Source: an uncultured Eubacteriales bacterium (lineage in GTDB: Bacteria; Bacillota; Clostridia; Christensenellales; Aristaeellaceae). Taken from it: a stretch of 64,000 nucleotides of DNA. A program made the position numbers and the translations under genes. Each line of letters starts with the position of its first letter. Within the stretch, counting starts at the first letter, position 1. The notes under the pieces were generated by a model that did not search any database, was not told the DNA's origin, and saw only the letters and a list, made by a program, of their open reading frames with translations. The stretch lies in NCBI GenBank assembly GCA_902790495.1, contig CADASK010000024.1:5625-69624 (forward strand), written 5' to 3'. Positions 5,934 through 21,102 of this stretch are shown here, piece by piece.

Positions 5934-8531
5934 TTACACTGTGACAAACTGTCCATCCCTGACATCGACGGTGATCTCCTCCCCGGGCTTCACCGCGCCG
6001 GCGACGATCTTCCTCGCCACCAAGGTCTCCACGCGGCTCTGCAGGAAGCGCTTGAGCGGGCGCGCGCCGTAGACCGGGTCGAAGCCCTGGTCGATGACCT
6101 GCCGCATGGCCTCGTCGGTCAGCGTCACGTGCAGGCGGCTGTCCTTCAGGCGGTCGTTCAGGCTGTTCACCATCAGGCCCACGATGCGGGTGATCTCCTC
6201 GCGGCCCAGGGGCTTGTAGCAGATGATCTCGTCAATCCGGTTCAGGAACTCGGGGCGGAAGTGGGTCTTCAGCAGGCGGTCCACGATGCCGCGGGCCTCC
6301 TCGGAGATCTCGCCGTCGCGGATGCCCTCGAGGATCGCGTCGCTGCCCAGGTTGCTGGTCATGATGAGGATCGTGTTCTTGAAGTCCACGGTGCGGCCCT
6401 GGCTGTCGGTGATGCGGCCGTCGTCCAGCACCTGCAGCAGCACGTTGAACACATCCGGGTGCGCCTTCTCCACCTCGTCGAACAGCACGACGCTGTAGGG
6501 CTTGCGGCGCACGGCCTCGGTCAGCTGGCCGCCCTCGTCGTAGCCGACGTATCCGGGAGGCGCTCCGATGAGACGGGACACGGAGAACTTCTCCATGTAT
6601 TCCGACATATCGATGCGGATCAGGTTCTTCTCGTCGTCGAACAGGGCCTGGGCCAGAGCCTTGGCGAGCTCGGTCTTGCCGACGCCGGTCGGGCCGAGGA
6701 ACAGGAAGCTGCCCAGCGGGCGGTTCGGGTCCTGGATGCCCGCGCGGCTGCGCAGGATGGCCTCGCTGACCTTGGTCACGGCCTCGTCCTGGCCGATGAC
6801 GCGCTGGTGCAGGATGTCCGGCAGGTGCAGCAGCTTCTCGCGCTCGCCCTCCATGAGCTTGGCGACCGGGATGCCGGTCCAGCGGGCGACGATGCGGGCA
6901 ATCTCCTCGTCGGTCACGCGGTCGTGCAGCAGGCTGTCCTCGCCGCGGGCCTTTTCGGCCTCCGCCTCGGCCTCCTCCAGCTGCTTCTTCAGGGTGGGCA
7001 GGCGGCCGTACTTCAGCTCGGCGGCCTTGTTGAGGTCGTAGGCGCGCTCCGCCTTCTCAATCTCACCGTTCAGCTGCTCCAGCTGCTCGCGCAGGCTCGT
7101 GACCTTCTCGATCACGGCCTTCTCGCCCTCCCACTTGGCCTGCATGGCGTTGAAGCTGTCGCGCTCCTCCGCCAGCTGCTTCTGCACCTCCTCCAGGTGC
7201 GCCTTGGAGAGCTCGTCGTCGTCCTTCTTCAGGGCGGCCTCCTCGATCTCCAGCTGCATCATGCGGCGGCGTACCTCATCCATCTCGGTGGGCATGGAGT
7301 CGATCTCCGTGCGGATCATGGCGCAGGCCTCGTCCACCAGGTCGATGGCCTTGTCCGGCAGGAAGCGGTCGGTGATATAGCGGTTGGAGAGGGTCGCGGC
7401 GGAGATCAGGGCGCTGTCCTGAATCTTCACGCCGTGGAAGACCTCGTAGCGCTCCTTCAGGCCGCGCAGGATGGCGATGGTGTCCTCCACGGAGGGCTCG
7501 CCGACCATCACGGGCTGGAAGCGGCGCTCGAGGGCGGCGTCCTTCTCAATGTACTGGCGGTATTCGTTCAGCGTGGTCGCGCCGATGCAGTGCAGCTCGC
7601 CGCGGGCCAGCATGGGCTTGAGCAGGTTGCCGGCGTCCATGGCGCCCTCCGCCTTGCCCGCGCCGACGATGGTGTGCAGCTCGTCGATGAACAGCAGGAT
7701 GCGGCCCTCGCTCTTCTTAATCTCGGCCAGCACGGCCTTCAAGCGCTCCTCAAACTCGCCGCGGAACTTCGCGCCGGCGATCAGGCTGCCCATGTCCAGG
7801 GAGAACACGGACTTGTCCTTCAGGCTGTCCGGCACGTCGCCGCGCACGATGCGCTGGGCCAGGCCCTCGGCGATGGCGGTCTTGCCGACGCCGGGCTCGC
7901 CGATGAGCACCGGGTTGTTCTTGGTCTTGCGGCTGAGGATGCGGATCACGTTGCGGATCTCCGCGTCACGGCCGATGACCGGGTCGAGCTTCTGCTGCCG
8001 CGCCATCTCCACCAGGTCGGTGCCGTATTTCTTCAGCGAATCGTAGGTCTCCTCGGGGCTGTCGGAAGTCACGCGGGTCGCGCCGCGCACCTCGCTGAGG
8101 GCCTTGAGGAAGCGATTGAGGTCGAAGCCCGCGCGGCTGAGCACGGTCTTCATGCGCTCGTTGGGCTTCGAGGCCAGGCCCATCCACAGATGCTCCACGG
8201 AGATGTACTCGTCCTTCATCTGCTTGGCGCGGGCGTCGGCCTCGTTCAGGGCCTTGTCCAGCTCCTGGGTGATGTAGACCTTGTCGGCCTCCCGCCCGGG
8301 GCCGGAGACCCGCGGCATGCGCTCCAGGGCATCCTGCACGGCGGCCTTCAGGCTGTCCGCGCTGACCCCGCACTTGCCCAGCAGCTGCGGGATCAGCCCG
8401 CCCGCGTCCTCCAGCAGGGCCGAGGCCAGGTGCTCCTGATCCACCTGCATGTGCTGATAATCCACAGCGATGCGCTGCGCGCGCTGGATCGCCTCCAGCG
8501 ACTTCTGCGTATATTGGTTCATGGCTGCCAT
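5934..8531 (-). CDS. clpB: ATP-dependent chaperone ClpB
   Basis: 865 aa. Two AAA+ modules (GEPGVGKT and GPTGVGKT Walker A), a coiled-coil middle domain and a Clp N-domain. RBS aaggag 9 nt upstream of the ATG. Confidence 0.95.
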
Positions 8532-11901: not shown

Positions 11902-11967
11902 CAGGGGTCAGCTCCTTTCAAACTTGATACTGTTTGCAAATGCGTTTGTTCGCGTAAAGGCGAGCGG

Positions 11968-12025
11968 CGAAGGTTTGCAAAGGGCGATCGCAAAGCCCTT
12001 TGCCCGCGCCCGCAGGCGCGGAACC
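11968..12025 (+). repeat. Family-1 repeat, short form (C5)
   Basis: cgaaggttt GCAAAGGG cgatcgcaaag CCCTTTGC CCGCGCC cgca GGCGCGG aacc. Confidence 0.9.
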
Positions 12026-12035
12026 TCTGCGCAGG

Positions 12036-12093
12036 GGATTTCGCCGCCTGCGGGCGGCGACCAGAGGCTTTCCGATCGCCTCTGGACTCTTCG
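12036..12093 (-). repeat. Family-1 repeat, short form, CCAGAGG subtype (C6)
   Basis: The reverse complement reads cgaagagt CCAGAGG cgatcggaaag CCTCTGG TCGCCGCC cgca GGCGGCGA aatcc. Tail-to-tail with C5. Confidence 0.9.
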
Positions 12094-12146
12094 GGGCAGC
12101 CGTTTGGTGAAAGGGCTTTGTGTCGCTCAAGGCAATTGTAAGGAAG

Positions 12147-14017: not shown

Positions 14018-14075
14018 TGCTGCGCCCCGAAGAGTCCAGAGGCGATCGGAAAGCCTCTGGTCGCCGCCTGGAGGC
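14018..14075 (+). repeat. Family-1 repeat, short form, CCAGAGG subtype (C7)
   Basis: cgaagagt CCAGAGG cgatcggaaag CCTCTGG TCGCCGCC tgga GGCGGCGA aactcc. Near-identical to C6 but inverted. Confidence 0.9.
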
Positions 14076-14112
14076 GGCGAAACTCCTGCTTCCAGGAGGT
14101 CTTTGGAGGAAG

Positions 14113-15723
14113 TCATTCTTCCTCCGCCTTGCGGGCCGCGGTCTCCGCCAGCTCCAGGCCGGGGTTGTTCTCCATCGCCAGGCGGATGCTCCACTCGTTC
14201 TCAAACAGCAGCACATCCCTGCCGCGGCTGTCCTTGGCGCGTCCGGAGGTCGAGGTCAGCTTCAGCTCCTCCACGGGCTTGGGCGTCTTGGTGACCCAGC
14301 GCACGTGGTGGAAGTTCATGGGCTCCATCACCAGTTCGGCCTGGTACTCGGTGCGCAGGCGGTGTTCCAGCACCTCGAACTGCAGCACGCCGACCACGCC
14401 GACCATGAACTCCTCCCGCCCGGTCTCCGTGCGGGTGAAGGTCTGGATCGCGCCCTCCTCGGCCAGCTGGTTGATGCCCTTCTGGAACTGCTTGCGCTTC
14501 ATGCTGTCCCTGGGCCGCACGCGGTTGAAGAACTCCGGCGCGAAGACCGGGATGTCCTCGTAGTGCAGCTTCGGGCCGTCGGAAAGGGTGTCGCCCAGCT
14601 GGTAGATGCCGGGGTCGAACAGGCCGATGATATCGCCCGCGTAGGCCTCCTCCACCGCCTCGCGCTCGTCCGCCATGAACTGCTGGGGCTGCTTGAGGGC
14701 CACGGGCTTGCCGGTGCCGGAGTGCCAGACCTCCATGCCCTTCTCGAAGGCGCCGGACACGATGCGCATAAAGGCGAGGCGGTCGCGGTGGGCCGGGTTC
14801 ATATTGGCCTGGATCTTGAAGATGAAGCCGGAGAAGTAGTTCTCCTCGGGGCCGATCTCGCCGATGTCGCTGCGGCGCGGCAGGGGCGGCGGCGTGTAGC
14901 GCAGGAAGCGCTCCAGGAAGGGCTCCACGCCGAAGTTGGTCACCGCCGAGCCGAAGAACATGGGCGTCAGCTGGCCCGCGCGCACCTGCTCCAGGTCGAA
15001 GCTCTCGCCGGCCTCCAGCAGGTCCAGCTCCTCGTGCAGGCGCTCGATGTAGCCCTCGTTCAGCGCGTCGTGCAGGGCGGGGTCGTCCAGGGGAATGTCC
15101 GCCTTCTCCACCATGCGCTTGCCGTGGTCGCCGCCGGTGTAGAGCTCCACCAGGTTCGTGTCCCGGTGGTACACGCCCTGGAAGTCGCCGTCCACGCCGA
15201 TGGGCCAGTTGATCGGGCAGGAGCGGATGCCCAGCACGCTCTCGATCTCGTCCATCAGCGCGAAGGGATCCTTCGCCGCGCGGTCCATCTTGTTGACAAA
15301 GGTGAAGATCGGGATGTTGCGCATCCGGCAGACCTTGAACAGCTTGATGGTCTGGGCCTCGACGCCCTTGGCCGCGTCGATCAGCATGACCGCCGCGTCC
15401 GCCGCCACCAGCACACGGTAGGTGTCCTCCGAGAAGTCCTGGTGGCCGGGGGTGTCGAGGATGTTGATGTGGTAGCCGTCAAACTCGAACTGCATGGCGG
15501 AGGAGGTCACGGAGATGCCGCGCTGCTTCTCGATGTCCATCCAGTCGGAGGTGGCGTGCTTGTCGCTCTTGCGCGCCTTGACGCTGCCCGCGGAACGGAT
15601 CGCGCCGCCGTAGAGCAGCAGCTTTTCCGTGAGCGTGGTTTTGCCCGCGTCCGGGTGCGAGATGATGGCGAAGGTTCTTCGCCGCTCCACCTCCCTGTGC
15701 AGCGTCTCCTGGGTTGCCGGCAT
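14113..15723 (-). CDS. prfC: Peptide chain release factor 3
   Basis: MPATQETLHREVERRRTFAIISHPDAGKTTLTEKLLLYGGAI... with DTPGHQDF and NKMD motifs. ATG 15723 preceded by gggaggg. Confidence 0.92.
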   Translation of the reverse strand: MPATQETLHREVERRRTFAIISHPDAGKTTLTEKLLLYGGAIRSAGSVKARKSDKHATSDWMDIEKQRGISVTSSAMQFEFDGYHINILDTPGHQDFSEDTYRVLVAADAAVMLIDAAKGVEAQTIKLFKVCRMRNIPIFTFVNKMDRAAKDPFALMDEIESVLGIRSCPINWPIGVDGDFQGVYHRDTNLVELYTGGDHGKRMVEKADIPLDDPALHDALNEGYIERLHEELDLLEAGESFDLEQVRAGQLTPMFFGSAVTNFGVEPFLERFLRYTPPPLPRRSDIGEIGPEENYFSGFIFKIQANMNPAHRDRLAFMRIVSGAFEKGMEVWHSGTGKPVALKQPQQFMADEREAVEEAYAGDIIGLFDPGIYQLGDTLSDGPKLHYEDIPVFAPEFFNRVRPRDSMKRKQFQKGINQLAEEGAIQTFTRTETGREEFMVGVVGVLQFEVLEHRLRTEYQAELVMEPMNFHHVRWVTKTPKPVEELKLTSTSGRAKDSRGRDVLLFENEWSIRLAMENNPGLELAETAARKAEEE

Positions 15724-15765
15724 CCTGATCCCTCCCGCATTTCTTAAGGAAATAACCAACGATGT

Positions 15766-15795
15766 ATTATAAAGTGGAGATACATGGGTTGTCAA
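15766..15795 (-). promoter_or_regulatory. Sigma-70-type promoter of prfC
   Basis: Minus strand: TTGACA, 18-nt spacer, TATAAT. Confidence 0.6.
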
Positions 15796-15870
15796 GAATG
15801 AAATCTGGGAGGAATTTGGGCAGAAATCGGGAAAGATTGGGTGTTTGCGCGCAAAAAAGAACGGCCTCCG

Positions 15871-15899
15871 TTGACAGGACGCCGCTCCTTCGGTAGAAT
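15871..15899 (+). promoter_or_regulatory. Near-consensus promoter driving a short plus-strand RNA
   Basis: TTGACA (15871-15876), 17-nt spacer, TAGAAT (15894-15899). No plus-strand ORF follows. Confidence 0.6.
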
Positions 15900-15905
15900 T
15901 GTAAT

Positions 15906-15978
15906 GCAGTGGATGTTTCCTGTTGGCAACCCAATGGAAACGGCCTCTGAGTAGCGGCAACTACCCAGAGGCTTTTTC
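15906..15978 (+). ncRNA. Predicted ~73-nt antisense sRNA (type I antitoxin candidate)
   Basis: Bounded by the promoter at 15871-15899 and a terminator (GCCTCTG a GTAG cggcaa CTAC c CAGAGGC + TTTTT, 15943-15977). Convergent with the 26-aa toxin ORF and ends 5 nt from its stop codon. Confidence 0.5.
15943..15977. terminator. Bidirectional terminator shared by the sRNA and toxin mRNA
   Basis: 11-bp interrupted stem. T5 follows on the plus strand; a weaker TTT follows on the minus strand. Confidence 0.65.
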
Positions 15979-15982
15979 TGTC

Positions 15983-16063
15983 TTAGTTCTTATGACCGTA
16001 GTGAACGGTGAGAACAAGACTGATGACAGCAATCAGAGCCATGAACAATTCAAGGTTCGTCAT
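15983..16063 (-). CDS. 26-aa hydrophobic peptide, holin-like type I toxin candidate
   Basis: MTNLELFMALIAVISLVLTVHYGHKN: a single TM helix plus a polar tail. Strong SD AGGGGGTG 5 nt upstream of the ATG. Below the ORF-track size cut-off as an independent gene. Confidence 0.6.
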   Translation of the reverse strand: MTNLELFMALIAVISLVLTVHYGHKN

Positions 16064-16073
16064 GCGCACCACC

Positions 16074-16098
16074 CCCTGTTGTCTTGATTCCAACAGGG
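16074..16098 (-). promoter_or_regulatory. 5' UTR hairpin occluding the toxin Shine-Dalgarno
   Basis: The mRNA reads CCCTGTTG gaatcaaga CAACAGGG ggtggtgcgc ATG. The 3' arm overlaps the first 4 nt of the SD. Confidence 0.55.
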
Positions 16099-16139
16099 TA
16101 AAGCATCCGGGCGATCGCCCAACCAATGACAGCATCCTT

Positions 16140-16168
16140 ATCATAACATAAGCATGAAATCCCGGCAA
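16140..16168 (-). promoter_or_regulatory. Promoter of the toxin mRNA
   Basis: Minus strand: TTGCCG, 17-nt spacer, TATGAT. Predicts a ~70-nt 5' UTR. Confidence 0.5.
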
Positions 16169-16394
16169 GTATACCGGAACTTCAAATTGTTTTGGAATAT
16201 GAGACAGTATTGGGGAATTTGGATGGGCTTTCGCGGTTTTCCACAGCTGATTCCTGCTGTTGAAGCCGGTCTGAGGCATTTGTGGATGTACTGTGATTCC
16301 GCCGAGAGCGGAGCCAAAGTGCCGTTACCGTTGGTGAAGAAATTGATGCAGTCGAATGGAGAAACACAGATCACGGGGATTCATCTCCTAAAGG

Positions 16395-16429
16395 TTAAAA
16401 AGAAAGCGCCACTCACATTGAATGGCGCT
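16395..16429 (-). terminator. Rho-independent terminator of the secreted-protein gene
   Basis: Minus strand: AGCGCCA ttcaatgtgag TGGCGCT ttcttttt. Confidence 0.75.
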
Positions 16430-16457
16430 GAAAGAAACCAAGCGAAAAAGATGCTAC

Positions 16458-17099
16458 TTACTTTAACATATTGTATGCATTTTCAAAGAAAGATGTATCT
16501 TCCATCTTGAAAAGATAATCAGAAGAAGCAAATTGTCCTTGTTCGGTAATTTTGAACGTTACAGATGAATTCTTCTTCAGTGCTTCCAAAACAGTTGATT
16601 CATAAGACGAATCTATATAGATTCGGTCTCCACCTTTCCACATTGTTCCGGTCATTTTAACTTTTTTTCCATCAGGATCAAGCATAACAATTGAATAGTA
16701 TGTGGTATCATATGAACTCTTTACGACATTTCGACCGTATTCAACAAGTTTGAGGGCTACATCATCTTTATCAATCAACCAAATAACATACAGTTTACTG
16801 TTGGTAGTAGCTGAATTGTTGAAAGTTCCTTCAACATATTCCTTTGTTGTGATATATCCCTCGGTGGTAGGATTCTTAAACTCATCAACGTAATATTTGA
16901 TCTGCCAGATACCGGTATTAGTCGGATCTGAAGCCCCCGCGGCATTTTTAGCGGCTGTAATTCTTGATTCCAATTCGCTTTCGAGTGCAATTAATTCTTC
17001 CAACGACATTCCTTCTAAAAAAGAATAGTCAGCTGCTATGGCAGAGAAAGAAAGCGAGCAAACAAGAATCGCAAGTAAAACACTCACCAATTTTTTCAT
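16458..17099 (-). CDS. Secreted protein of unknown function
   Basis: MKKLVSVLLAILVCSLSFSAIA signal peptide. ATG 17099 lies 8 nt after AGGAGG. AT-rich codon usage unlike the host. No family recognised. Confidence 0.7.
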   Translation of the reverse strand: MKKLVSVLLAILVCSLSFSAIAADYSFLEGMSLEELIALESELESRITAAKNAAGASDPTNTGIWQIKYYVDEFKNPTTEGYITTKEYVEGTFNNSATTNSKLYVIWLIDKDDVALKLVEYGRNVVKSSYDTTYYSIVMLDPDGKKVKMTGTMWKGGDRIYIDSSYESTVLEALKKNSSVTFKITEQGQFASSDYLFKMEDTSFFENAYNMLK

Positions 17100-17134
17100 C
17101 ACCAAATCCTCCTTTGAGCAAACTTTCTTTATAG

Positions 17135-17163
17135 ATTATAACCTCACAGCCCAGAAAAAGCAA
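17135..17163 (-). promoter_or_regulatory. Promoter of the secreted-protein gene
   Basis: Minus strand: TTGCTT, 17-nt spacer, TATAAT. Confidence 0.5.
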
Positions 17164-17237
17164 TATACTAAATGGTTATTCTGGTGAATTGTTAATATAT
17201 TTTTCCCATTTACTCTGACACCCGTCTTCACTGCTGT

Positions 17238-17438
17238 TCATGTCCAGCTTTTCGCATTCAAGCCAAACTTCAGTACAAGAAATACTCCGTTTATGTGATC
17301 GTTCATCAAAGTAGTGCCCTTATAGGCTTCCTGTAATACGGATTCAATGACTATGTACTCAGAGATTTCCTCCAGTGCCGCGATCTTTGAGGTTGCCCAT
17401 TCACTCAGCAGAACTTTTCTTCCTCCAGCTCTTTCCAA
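17238..17438 (-). CDS. Small hypothetical ORF or gene fragment
   Basis: 66-codon frame beginning at TTG with no good SD. A 4-codon ATG ORF (MKKV stop) lies just upstream in another frame, suggesting a degraded gene. Confidence 0.2.
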   Translation of the reverse strand: MERAGGRKVLLSEWATSKIAALEEISEYIVIESVLQEAYKGTTLMNDHINGVFLVLKFGLNAKSWT

Positions 17439-17482
17439 ATGCCTTTTTGTTCAAACTTTCTTCATTCTTGCGTAATAACATC

Positions 17483-17512
17483 TTGACAAAAACAGCGCAT
17501 TTAGGTTACAAT
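17483..17512 (+). promoter_or_regulatory. Promoter of the surface-protein gene
   Basis: TTGACA (17483-17488), 18-nt spacer, TACAAT (17507-17512). Confidence 0.55.
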
Positions 17513-17597
17513 AGGCTTGGTATCGAATACCCATGCCTTGCCCGGCCTGGCCGGGAACGGAAGGAGGAAGGGCGGTGCCCCGCACGGCCCAAACACG

Positions 17598-19318: not shown

Positions 19319-19366
19319 CAATTCCCAAGCTCAAGCAAAGAACTGATCCCTTTCTAAGGCGATGCC

Positions 19367-19426
19367 CGAAGGTTTCCAAAGGGCGATCGGAAAGCCCTTT
19401 GGTCGCCGCCCGCAGGCGGCGAAATC
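19367..19426 (+). repeat. Family-1 repeat, short form (C8)
   Basis: cgaaggttt CCAAAGGG cgatcggaaag CCCTTTGG TCGCCGCC cgca GGCGGCGA aatc. Confidence 0.9.
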
Positions 19427-19465
19427 TCTTGGATACAAATCTATCTGCTGCCGAAACAGGCAATG

Positions 19466-19591
19466 CGAAGGGGTCCCGGGGGTTCGGAGCGCCCGGAAAA
19501 CGCCATGTTATGGCGTTTTCAGCGGAGAACGGGCGGCAGCCCTGGACCGATCGCAAAGCCCCCGGGTCGCCGCCCGCAGGCGGCGAAATCC
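19466..19591 (+). repeat. Family-1 repeat, long form (C9)
   Basis: cgaaggggt CCCGGGGG [ttcggagcgcccgGAAAACGCCATgttATGGCGTTTTCagcggagaacgggcggcagccctggaccga] tcgcaaag CCCCCGGG TCGCCGCC cgca GGCGGCGA aatcc. Confidence 0.9.
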
Positions 19592-19601
19592 CCCTGCACC
19601 C

Positions 19602-19630
19602 TTGCGCCACCCAGCGTCCTGCGCTATAAT
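19602..19630 (+). promoter_or_regulatory. Promoter of galM
   Basis: TTGCGC, 17-nt spacer, TATAAT (19625-19630). Confidence 0.5.
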
Positions 19631-20880: not shown

Positions 20881-20977
20881 CGAAGGGTTGGAGGGGGCTC
20901 GGAGCGCCCGGAAAACGCCATGTTATGGCGTTTTCAGCGGAGAGCGGGCGGCAGCCCCGGACCGACCGCAAAGCCCC
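20881..20977 (+). repeat. Family-1 repeat, long form, 3'-truncated (C10)
   Basis: cgaagggtt GGAGGGGG [insert] ccgcaaag cccc, after which the H1 3' arm and H2 are missing. Confidence 0.85.
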
Positions 20978-20987
20978 AAGTGCGGCG

Positions 20988-21047
20988 CGAAGGTTTCCAA
21001 AGGGCGATCGCAAAGCCCTTTGGTCGCCGCCCGCAGGCGGCGAAATC
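20988..21047 (+). repeat. Family-1 repeat, short form (C11)
   Basis: cgaaggttt CCAAAGGG cgatcgcaaag CCCTTTGG TCGCCGCC cgca GGCGGCGA aatc. Lies 10 nt after truncated C10. Confidence 0.9.
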
Positions 21048-21102
21048 TCCTGCAGCCAAAAGGAAAAGCCCTCCATTTCCGGAAGGGCTTTTCTTTATGC
21101 CA

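Follow-up and report, generated by a model that had tools for sequence, protein, structure and literature searches.

A small peptide-antisense RNA cassette upstream of prfC in an uncultured Clostridia bacterium very likely represents a new family of type I toxin-antitoxin modules

A stretch of 64,000 nucleotides (nt) from an uncultured Eubacteriales bacterium of the Aristaeellaceae (contig CADASK010000024.1), here called the window, carries upstream of prfC, at positions 15852-16168, a cassette of ~320 nt in which the gene for a very small membrane peptide faces a convergent antisense RNA gene. Copies of the entire unit are found in a prophage, in plasmid-like elements and in other chromosomes, and for this reason we propose that it very likely belongs to a family of RNA-controlled, type I toxin-antitoxin modules that is new and has escaped annotation. 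Judging from its sequence, the cassette probably functions in the way of Gram-positive modules with a 3'-convergent antitoxin, with a toxic peptide under antisense control. The locus had been singled out by an earlier inspection of the letters alone (the sequence-only reading); every element listed there is present, and the autonomous unit resembling txpA/RatA or bsrG/SR4 that it envisaged is supported by the mobility of the cassette, the coding character of its open reading frame (ORF), compensatory changes in the Shine-Dalgarno (SD) hairpin and in two terminators (T1 and T2), and the antisense promoter. The window copy consists of the following parts.

16140-16168, minus strand: promoter of the messenger RNA (mRNA) found by a promoter scan, with -35 TTGCCG at 16168-16163, a 17-nt spacer and an extended -10 TGtTATGAT at 16148-16140
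16064-16134, minus strand: 5' untranslated region (5'UTR) of ~71 nt, which begins with the conserved UGCUGU and contains the hairpins H1 and H2
16120-16109, minus strand: H1 (GGGC-loop-GCCC), its stem invariant and its loop variable across variants
16074-16098, minus strand: H2, the SD-sequestering hairpin, in which CCCUGUUG (16098-16091) pairs with CAACAGGG (16081-16074)
16070-16077, minus strand: SD sequence AGGGGGUG, which is GGAGGUGAU in relatives
15983-16063, minus strand: ORF of 26 codons plus stop, MTNLELFMALIAVISLVLTVHYGHKN, with a predicted transmembrane (TM) segment at residues 4-20 and a short polar tail
15943-15972, both strands: T1, a bidirectional hairpin that serves as terminator of the small RNA (sRNA) with U5 at 15973-15977 (plus strand) and as a weak or first mRNA terminator
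15906-15977, plus strand: predicted sRNA of ~72 nt, the antitoxin candidate, with a 5' hairpin at 15915-15941 that holds the C-rich CCUGUUGG, followed by T1
15871-15899, plus strand: sRNA promoter TTGACA-17-TAGAAT, with 11/12 consensus matches and no ORF behind it
15911-15926, minus strand: mRNA 3'UTR segment CCAACAGGAAACAUCC, complementary to GGAUGCUUUACCCUGUUGG in the leader (16108-16090) and a direct repeat of the 3' arm of H2
15853-15887, minus strand: T2, the distal mRNA terminator, with stem GAGCGGC/GCCGUUC, a loop that holds the sRNA -35 (UGUCAA), and then U6

Relatives were rare and had to be sought in several ways. An exhaustive phmmer search with a 30-residue query against 1.84 billion representative proteins returned exactly one match (E = 7e-4), a called ORF of 60 amino acids (aa) whose last 26 residues, MTNLELFMALITVAGLVLTIYFGMKR, are identical to the window peptide at 18/26 positions. 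A metagenome scan with the degenerate back-translated pattern MTNLELFMA yielded four genuine variants (L089, L091, L093 and L095); the other five of its nine matches (MTNLEFFMA...) had no SD and were set aside as chance ORFs. A seventh variant, beginning MTTVELF... (L097/L098), was recovered when the 60-aa ORF was used in a word search, and nhmmer with an alignment of the cassette found a distant eighth, encoding MTGYEIIMVVLTIIGLLIAVYQMNRR, in a metagenome-assembled genome (MAG) of a related member of the Bacillota (L028). This last copy lies at 6548-6958 on the plus strand, downstream of typA, and its leader is longer (~150 nt) and contains an additional GC-rich hairpin; its layout of T1, antisense promoter and T2 is kept, and its peptide, at 27% identity, retains the length and hydrophobic pattern. 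Other searches added nothing: a word search with a padded query of 40 aa came back empty, the peptide had by tblastn a chance match to a nonribosomal peptide synthetase among plasmids and nothing among phages, the cassette had no blastn match in collections of cultured phages and plasmids, and two extra viral scans with relaxed patterns returned only the known uncultivated virus genome and one false match (L099).

The copies occupy unrelated surroundings. On contigs L084-L086 the small ORF sits in a prophage lysogeny module, with an integrase and then a PhdYeFM fragment on one side and Bro-N or HSDR_N and then a CI-type S24 repressor on the other, and the IMG/VR viral contig L087 holds this locus too. 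In these prophage copies the PhdYeFM-family antitoxin ORF is 51 aa long, is transcribed divergently from the cassette, lies between integrase and cassette (4792-4947 in L084; 1349-1504 in L085 and L086), and has no visible partner toxin gene. By their gene content, L091 and L095 are plasmid- or phage-like elements, with neighbors that include D5/DUF5906 primase-helicase, CHC2 primase, CI-like helix-turn-helix, ParA and ImmA/IrrE proteins. The L089 copy adjoins a Fic gene, and the L093 copy has a chromosomal position between polC and rimP-nusA. In all of these places the whole cassette is the unit of conservation, with homology running from the mRNA -35 to just past the distal T-run and flanks that are unrelated. 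The order of parts is conserved on the mRNA side (-35/-10, UGCUGU, H1, H2, SD, ORF, T1) as well as beyond T1 (a variable hairpin, the complement of TAnAAT, T2 with its UGUCAA loop, and U-runs). Compared across these contexts, the cassette is a discrete mobile unit, found in prophage, plasmid-like elements and chromosomes.

This recurrence bears on the alternative of chance, namely that promoter-like hexamers, a terminator and a short hydrophobic ORF have come together by accident in an AT-richer intergenic region beside a foreign islet. A scan of 64 kb will always yield some best-looking small ORF, and no curated family matches this one. Moreover, among 80 prfC loci sampled from related uncultured Clostridia/Christensenellales (the best 90% identical, many of them rumen or gut MAGs), there was no DNA or peptide similarity to the cassette upstream of prfC, and the single nhmmer match in that set is the L028 copy downstream of typA. 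Chance is nevertheless refuted by the seven other loci, in which the same cassette is kept element by element in unrelated contexts with compensatory changes, and we give it a negligible probability.

At the level of single elements, the description given by the sequence-only reading largely carries over to the relatives. Its minus-strand TTGCCG-17-TATGAT promoter is conserved, with a TTGC-type -35 and a TGn-extended -10 (TATAAT or a one-base variant) at the same place in 7/7 variants; the leader measures ~71 nt in the window. The hairpin that it drew over the start of the SD is found in the minimum free energy (MFE) fold of the isolated leader in 7/7 variants, the ORF with one predicted TM segment and a polar tail shows coding constraint, and the plus-strand TTGACA-17-TAGAAT promoter without an ORF behind it has conserved hexamers. 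The terminator that it placed at 15943-15977 does have the hairpin, the T5 and the distance of 5 nt from the stop codon, but the structure is stronger on the minus strand (-21.6 kcal/mol, against -16.4 kcal/mol on the plus strand, where there is an A.C mismatch). Its restriction of the overlap between the two transcripts to their 3' ends has to be abandoned, since it had missed T2 at 15887-15853. With T2 in place the cassette ends at ~15852, and if T2 is the mRNA end, the mRNA 3'UTR spans the whole sRNA and the overlap could extend well beyond the 3' ends.

Both predicted RNAs of the window copy fold better than all of 200 shuffles (sRNA -31.3 kcal/mol, z = -3.3; mRNA z = -3.8), and the 1.4-kb region holds 6 promoter-like sites, compared with 1.4 +/- 1.1 in shuffles. 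The 3' arm of H2 overlaps the SD and contributes its first Gs; the SD motif ends 6 nt, and the G-run 8 nt, before the ATG. The stem of H2 differs between variants (GUUG/CAAC, GCU/AGC, CUGU/ACAG, CCCCG/CGGGG), and the window stem is one U-A pair longer than that of L084 through a compensatory double insertion. H1, T1, T2 and the helix between the 5' end and the 3'UTR were put to a covariation test on alignment A3, in which 93.2% of cells were paired (30-54% with partners slid), 14 pairs were changed on both sides (1-4 with partners slid), and the covariation score was 0.315 (0.04-0.14). None of 500 shuffles reached the observed share of paired cells or the covariation score, and 1/500 reached the number of pairs changed on both sides. 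Compensatory changes affect 5/12 pairs of T1, with 97.5% of its cells paired, and 6/10 pairs of T2.

T1 lies 5-16 nt past the stop codon (5 nt in the window). It is more stable on the ORF strand in 6/8 variants, because G.U pairs there are A.C mismatches on the opposite strand, and the better U-tracts are on the sRNA strand (U3-U7 after T1 in 7/7 variants); T1 is therefore truly bidirectional. The counterparts of the sRNA measure 79-91 nt in all variants. Their -35, TTGACA, is invariant in seven variants, their -10 reads TAnAAT in 7/7 and the spacer is 17-18 nt, while L028 has TTGACG-TAAAAT. Mean pairwise identity is 1.00 in the -35 and 0.87 in the -10, and falls to 0.64 in the spacer and 0.44 in the 12 nt downstream. 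Such conserved hexamers around a drifting spacer are, on this alignment, the signature of a functional antisense promoter.

The small ORF can be assessed in the same way. Pairwise pN/pS (nonsynonymous relative to synonymous change) among seven variants is 0.07-0.49, and in codons 10-26, which lie outside the search pattern, it is 0.10-0.72 with a mean of 0.34. Variable columns number 11/7/20 by codon position; within codons 14-26 they number 8/6/13, a third-position bias. Leu18 is encoded by CTC, TTG, CTG and CTA, and Thr19 uses all four of its codons. The sole indel is exactly one codon, and the stops are in register. By these substitution patterns, the ORF is evolving as a coding sequence under purifying selection. 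Codons 1-11 (16031-16063 in the window; the same in L084-L097) show almost no synonymous change, though the search pattern permitted it, and RNAalifold places a small hairpin in codons 2-10 and pairs the SD flank GGUGAUG with codons 12-14, which implies RNA constraints within the ORF. This points to an additional constraint at the RNA level or to a second anti-SD.

The same observations could be taken to mean that the cassette is an RNA-only unit, acting as an insulator or bidirectional terminator or as two regulatory RNAs, whose ORF is untranslated and conserved as structured RNA; T1 and T2 together would insulate neighbors such as prfC. We consider this very improbable, given a strong SD at optimal spacing in 8/8 variants, the third-position bias and four-fold codon turnover just described, the one-codon indel, and the retained length and hydrophobicity of the distant L028 peptide.

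The sRNA resembles the mRNA leader. Both begin with UGC and continue with GGAAG or GGAUG followed by a C-rich, anti-SD-like motif, and this motif changes in step between copies (CCUGUUGG in the window, CCGCCGG in L089, CCGCUGG in L093). In other words, the mRNA has a 3'UTR that is complementary to its own leader. RNAduplex pairing of 5'UTR with 3'UTR gave z = -3.5 to -7.3 in 5/7 variants and -1.9 in L097, and the cognate assignment was the best of all 5040 permutations. In L028 the complementarity involves unrelated sequence over ~45 nt, with a free energy (dG) of -52 kcal/mol and z = -4.0. The 5'-3' complementarity is thus significant in 6/8 variants and cognate-specific; across the alignment, the 5'UTR and 3'UTR are co-evolving as complementary partners. 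In MFE folds of the full-length mRNA the SD hairpin is kept in some variants, and in others the anti-SD arm pairs with the 3'UTR. The sRNA itself carries a copy of the anti-SD arm, which allows 5-11 possible pairs with the SD region.

One tentative explanation of this likeness is a leader-mimic antitoxin, in which the sRNA would be an inverted, ORF-less paralog of the toxin mRNA's own promoter and leader, in a new mobile family. The sRNA and the leader would then compete for one 3'UTR segment, and sRNA binding would switch the mRNA from the 5'-3' long-range conformer to the SD-occluded hairpin. If true, this mechanism is one not described for the 16 curated families and would so far be confined to uncultured gut or rumen Clostridia and their prophages.

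For the more general reading of an antisense-controlled toxic peptide, we propose the following course of events. A sigma-A-type promoter on the minus strand would produce an mRNA for a 26-residue single-pass membrane peptide, whose translation would be repressed in cis by the leader hairpin, in which the SD has its first Gs paired. From the plus strand, a near-consensus promoter located inside the distal terminator would produce an RNA of ~72 nt that ends at the bidirectional hairpin, 5 nt past the stop codon. An mRNA reading through T1 to T2 would be fully complementary to this sRNA, and the resulting duplex might be degraded in the manner of RNase III, as with RatA and SR4 (PMC8167048). The 3'UTR segment targeted by the sRNA would also be the one that pairs with the anti-SD arm of the leader, so that this arm, once the sRNA is bound to its target, would be available to close the SD hairpin. 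When the sRNA is lost, the 3'UTR would hold the anti-SD arm, the SD would be exposed, and the peptide would then damage the membrane. That the peptide is toxic is here an assumption based on how type I toxins are generally built (PMC6563280).

The main rival to this scheme keeps the control and changes the product. The peptide might be non-toxic, a small membrane protein whose amount is adjusted by an antisense RNA in cis; it would then be a phage or plasmid moron that serves, for example, superinfection exclusion or the modulation of a host membrane complex. The interval between integrase and repressor is a classic moron site, the peptide is very short with a two-residue basic tail, many bacterial single-TM proteins of 25-35 aa are regulators and not toxins, and a profile search of the PDB gave YneM/MgtS as its weak, not significant best match (E = 1.5). 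However, layered translational repression, a convergent sRNA with the stronger promoter, and autonomous mobility are hallmarks of type I systems (PMC8594479, PMC6563280), and a selfish cassette accounts for solitary chromosomal copies beside housekeeping genes better than an accessory gene of a phage does. On balance we regard a non-toxic product as unlikely.

Several observations weigh against a toxin-antitoxin module of this design. The peptide falls in no known toxin family. The sequence-only reading had compared it with the Hol-Tox peptides and proposed a hidden Markov model (HMM) search, which does not bear out the resemblance: Pfam, including Hol_Tox (PF16935), gave no match for the window peptide at E <= 10, all eight family peptides together had PGF-CTERM noise as their sole Pfam match, and NCBIfam, including the Fst model, recognized nothing in the window peptide and gave no Fst-family match for any of the eight at E <= 10. 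PADLOC had no match for the peptide, PHROGs gave generic membrane noise only, and Rfam at E <= 10 returned sub-threshold noise and nothing for the sRNA. The C-terminal tail is also very short, KR in relatives and only HKN in the window, where typical lysine-rich tails are longer. RNAduplex scores of the sRNA against the translation-initiation region were no better than shuffles and showed no cognate preference, so that direct sRNA-SD pairing was set aside as the main mechanism, being unproven. Just eight distinct variants are known, and four of them were found with a pattern that fixes the first nine residues. Finally, the window copy itself is the least typical: it is the weakest in 5'UTR-3'UTR pairing (z = -0.9), it lacks the extended -10 TG that six variants have in the sRNA promoter, its T1 U-tract is poor on the mRNA strand (CGUUUCCAUU), and its pN/pS is the highest, with a mean of 0.51 compared with 0.27 among the rest. 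The window copy is intact, yet the most divergent, and it may be partly attenuated.

Comparison with known systems places the cassette among type I modules in design and apart from them in sequence. Type I toxins are small (<60 aa) and hydrophobic, with a TM domain and a charged C-terminus (PMC6563280). The family peptides have 25-26 aa and, over the best 17 residues, a mean Kyte-Doolittle hydropathy of 2.4-2.6 (2.58 in the window peptide), and seven variants end in KR or RR, the tail being HYGHKN in the window and YFG(M)KR in others. The antisense gene has, on sequence, its own promoter and terminator and is complementary to the mRNA. In type I mRNAs a local anti-SD hairpin, a 5'-3' long-distance interaction, or both sequester the SD (PMC8594479), and the cassette has an SD hairpin in all variants together with co-evolving 5'UTR-3'UTR complementarity. 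The antisense RNA lies on the 3' side in the Gram-positive families of T1TAdb (PMC8594479), as it does here.

Closest in overall arrangement are the B. subtilis prophage systems with a 3'-convergent antitoxin, txpA/RatA, bsrG/SR4 and bsrE/SR5 (PMC8167048, PMC6563280). They share with the cassette a small peptide with an N-terminal TM segment, a convergent 3'-side sRNA with extensive complementarity to the mRNA 3' end, an antitoxin promoter nearer to consensus than that of the toxin, and a prophage or mobile location. Binding of SR4 at the 3' end of bsrG alters the structure around the SD (PMC8167048), and the same logic may apply to the cassette. Their peptides are longer (28-60 aa, against 25-26 here), and there is no peptide or RNA similarity. 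Whereas their antisense RNA reaches into the 3' part of the ORF (PMC8594479), the sRNA of the cassette stops 5-16 nt past the stop codon without ORF overlap, is embedded in the mRNA 3'UTR between two terminators, and resembles the mRNA leader. The C. difficile modules, such as CD2517.1-RCd8 (PMC5961336, PMC7699646, PMC6563280), also belong to the class Clostridia, have convergent overlapping genes, are enriched in prophages, and involve unannotated small ORFs found only by dedicated searches; they differ in that their toxins have 34-59 aa with lysine-rich tails and no similarity to ours, and in that their antitoxins overlap the coding region. Type I systems of both species are associated with prophages (PMC6563280, PMC8167048, PMC7699646), and the contexts of the cassette (prophage, primase/ParA/ImmA elements, Fic, polC-rimP) match that association.

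The par locus of E. faecalis pAD1 (fst RNA I/RNA II; PMC8167048) provides a second parallel: its two genes converge on a common bidirectional terminator, its antisense RNA leaves the ORF uncovered (PMC8594479), and a leader structure limits translation. In par a repeat in the sRNA gene is complementary to the toxin SD region, and in the cassette the 3' arm of H2 and the 3'UTR motif are direct repeats. Unlike par, the cassette encodes no Fst/Ldr superfamily peptide (the Fst model does not match), its sRNA-SD pairing is short (5-11 bp) and not above shuffles, read-through mRNAs covering the entire sRNA are implied by its second, distal terminator, and its dominant co-evolving interaction is that of the leader with the 3'UTR and not that of the sRNA with the leader. 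An antisense RNA without ORF overlap is also found in SprA1/SprA1as of S. aureus, where the cis-encoded SprA1as acts through a non-overlapping 5' domain on the toxin initiation region. Should sRNA-SD pairing prove real, SprA1as would be the nearest precedent. Long-distance 5'-3' interactions are a known means of control in hok/Sok and aapA/IsoA (PMC6733600, PMC8594479), which combine them with a local SD-sequestering hairpin, as the cassette combines its 5'-3' complementarity with H2. These are Gram-negative systems without homology to the cassette, in which the antisense RNA is directed against the 5' portion of an mRNA that is processed at its 3' end; the sRNA gene of the cassette, in contrast, lies in the 3'UTR and would target the 3' partner of the long-range helix. 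To Hol_Tox (PF16935), a single-TM Firmicutes peptide of ~30 aa, there is a general resemblance only. By these comparisons, the cassette is not a sequence member of any known type I system considered.

The window copy sits at the edge of a low-GC region, as the sequence-only reading had noted, with a GC content of 0.34-0.49 across 15750-17550 compared with ~0.65 elsewhere. An islet at 16458-17500 (GC 0.34-0.42) adjoins it and holds the upstream neighbor at 16458-17105 on the minus strand, a low-GC gene for a secreted 213/215-aa protein with a signal peptide and with its own terminator at 16429-16405. This protein belongs to no Pfam, NCBIfam or PHROG family and has no homolog in the 80 related prfC loci, from which both proteins encoded next to the cassette on its upstream side are absent; its gene was probably acquired horizontally. 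A 13-bp hairpin at 16155-16184 (minus strand), not conserved in other cassette copies, overlaps the -35 of the peptide mRNA and might affect transcription that enters from the islet gene upstream. The next gene downstream, also on the minus strand, is prfC (14113-15723; NCBIfam 4e-230), with its own perfect promoter at 15795-15766. The window contains a single copy of the cassette, no second one being found within it, and same-species contigs are 100% identical to the window, so that no variation is available from them. REP/MITE-like palindromic intergenic repeats, with a unit of roughly AAAGGGCGATCGCAAAGCCCTTTGGTCGCCGCCCGCAGGCGGCGAAA and two hairpins, occur at 11957-12100, 14024-14082, 19356-19603 and 20977-21060, and one 59-nt inverted pair of them, 97% complementary, flanks typA.

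Type I loci are almost invisible to annotation, because their ORFs are below gene-caller cut-offs and their RNAs have no models, and outside a few cultured Firmicutes and Proteobacteria they are essentially uncharted. With the cassette described here, uncultured Christensenellales-like Clostridia and their prophages contribute a further family, one that is defined purely by covariation and has clear boundaries. It offers a test case for a 3'-encoded antisense RNA that would control an SD ~200 nt away through a competing long-range helix. Being compact (~320 nt) and portable, it could also serve as a counter-selection or plasmid-stabilization part for gut anaerobes. For the organism itself, our analysis suggests that the region upstream of prfC in this genome contains an acquired selfish element, not elements of prfC regulation.

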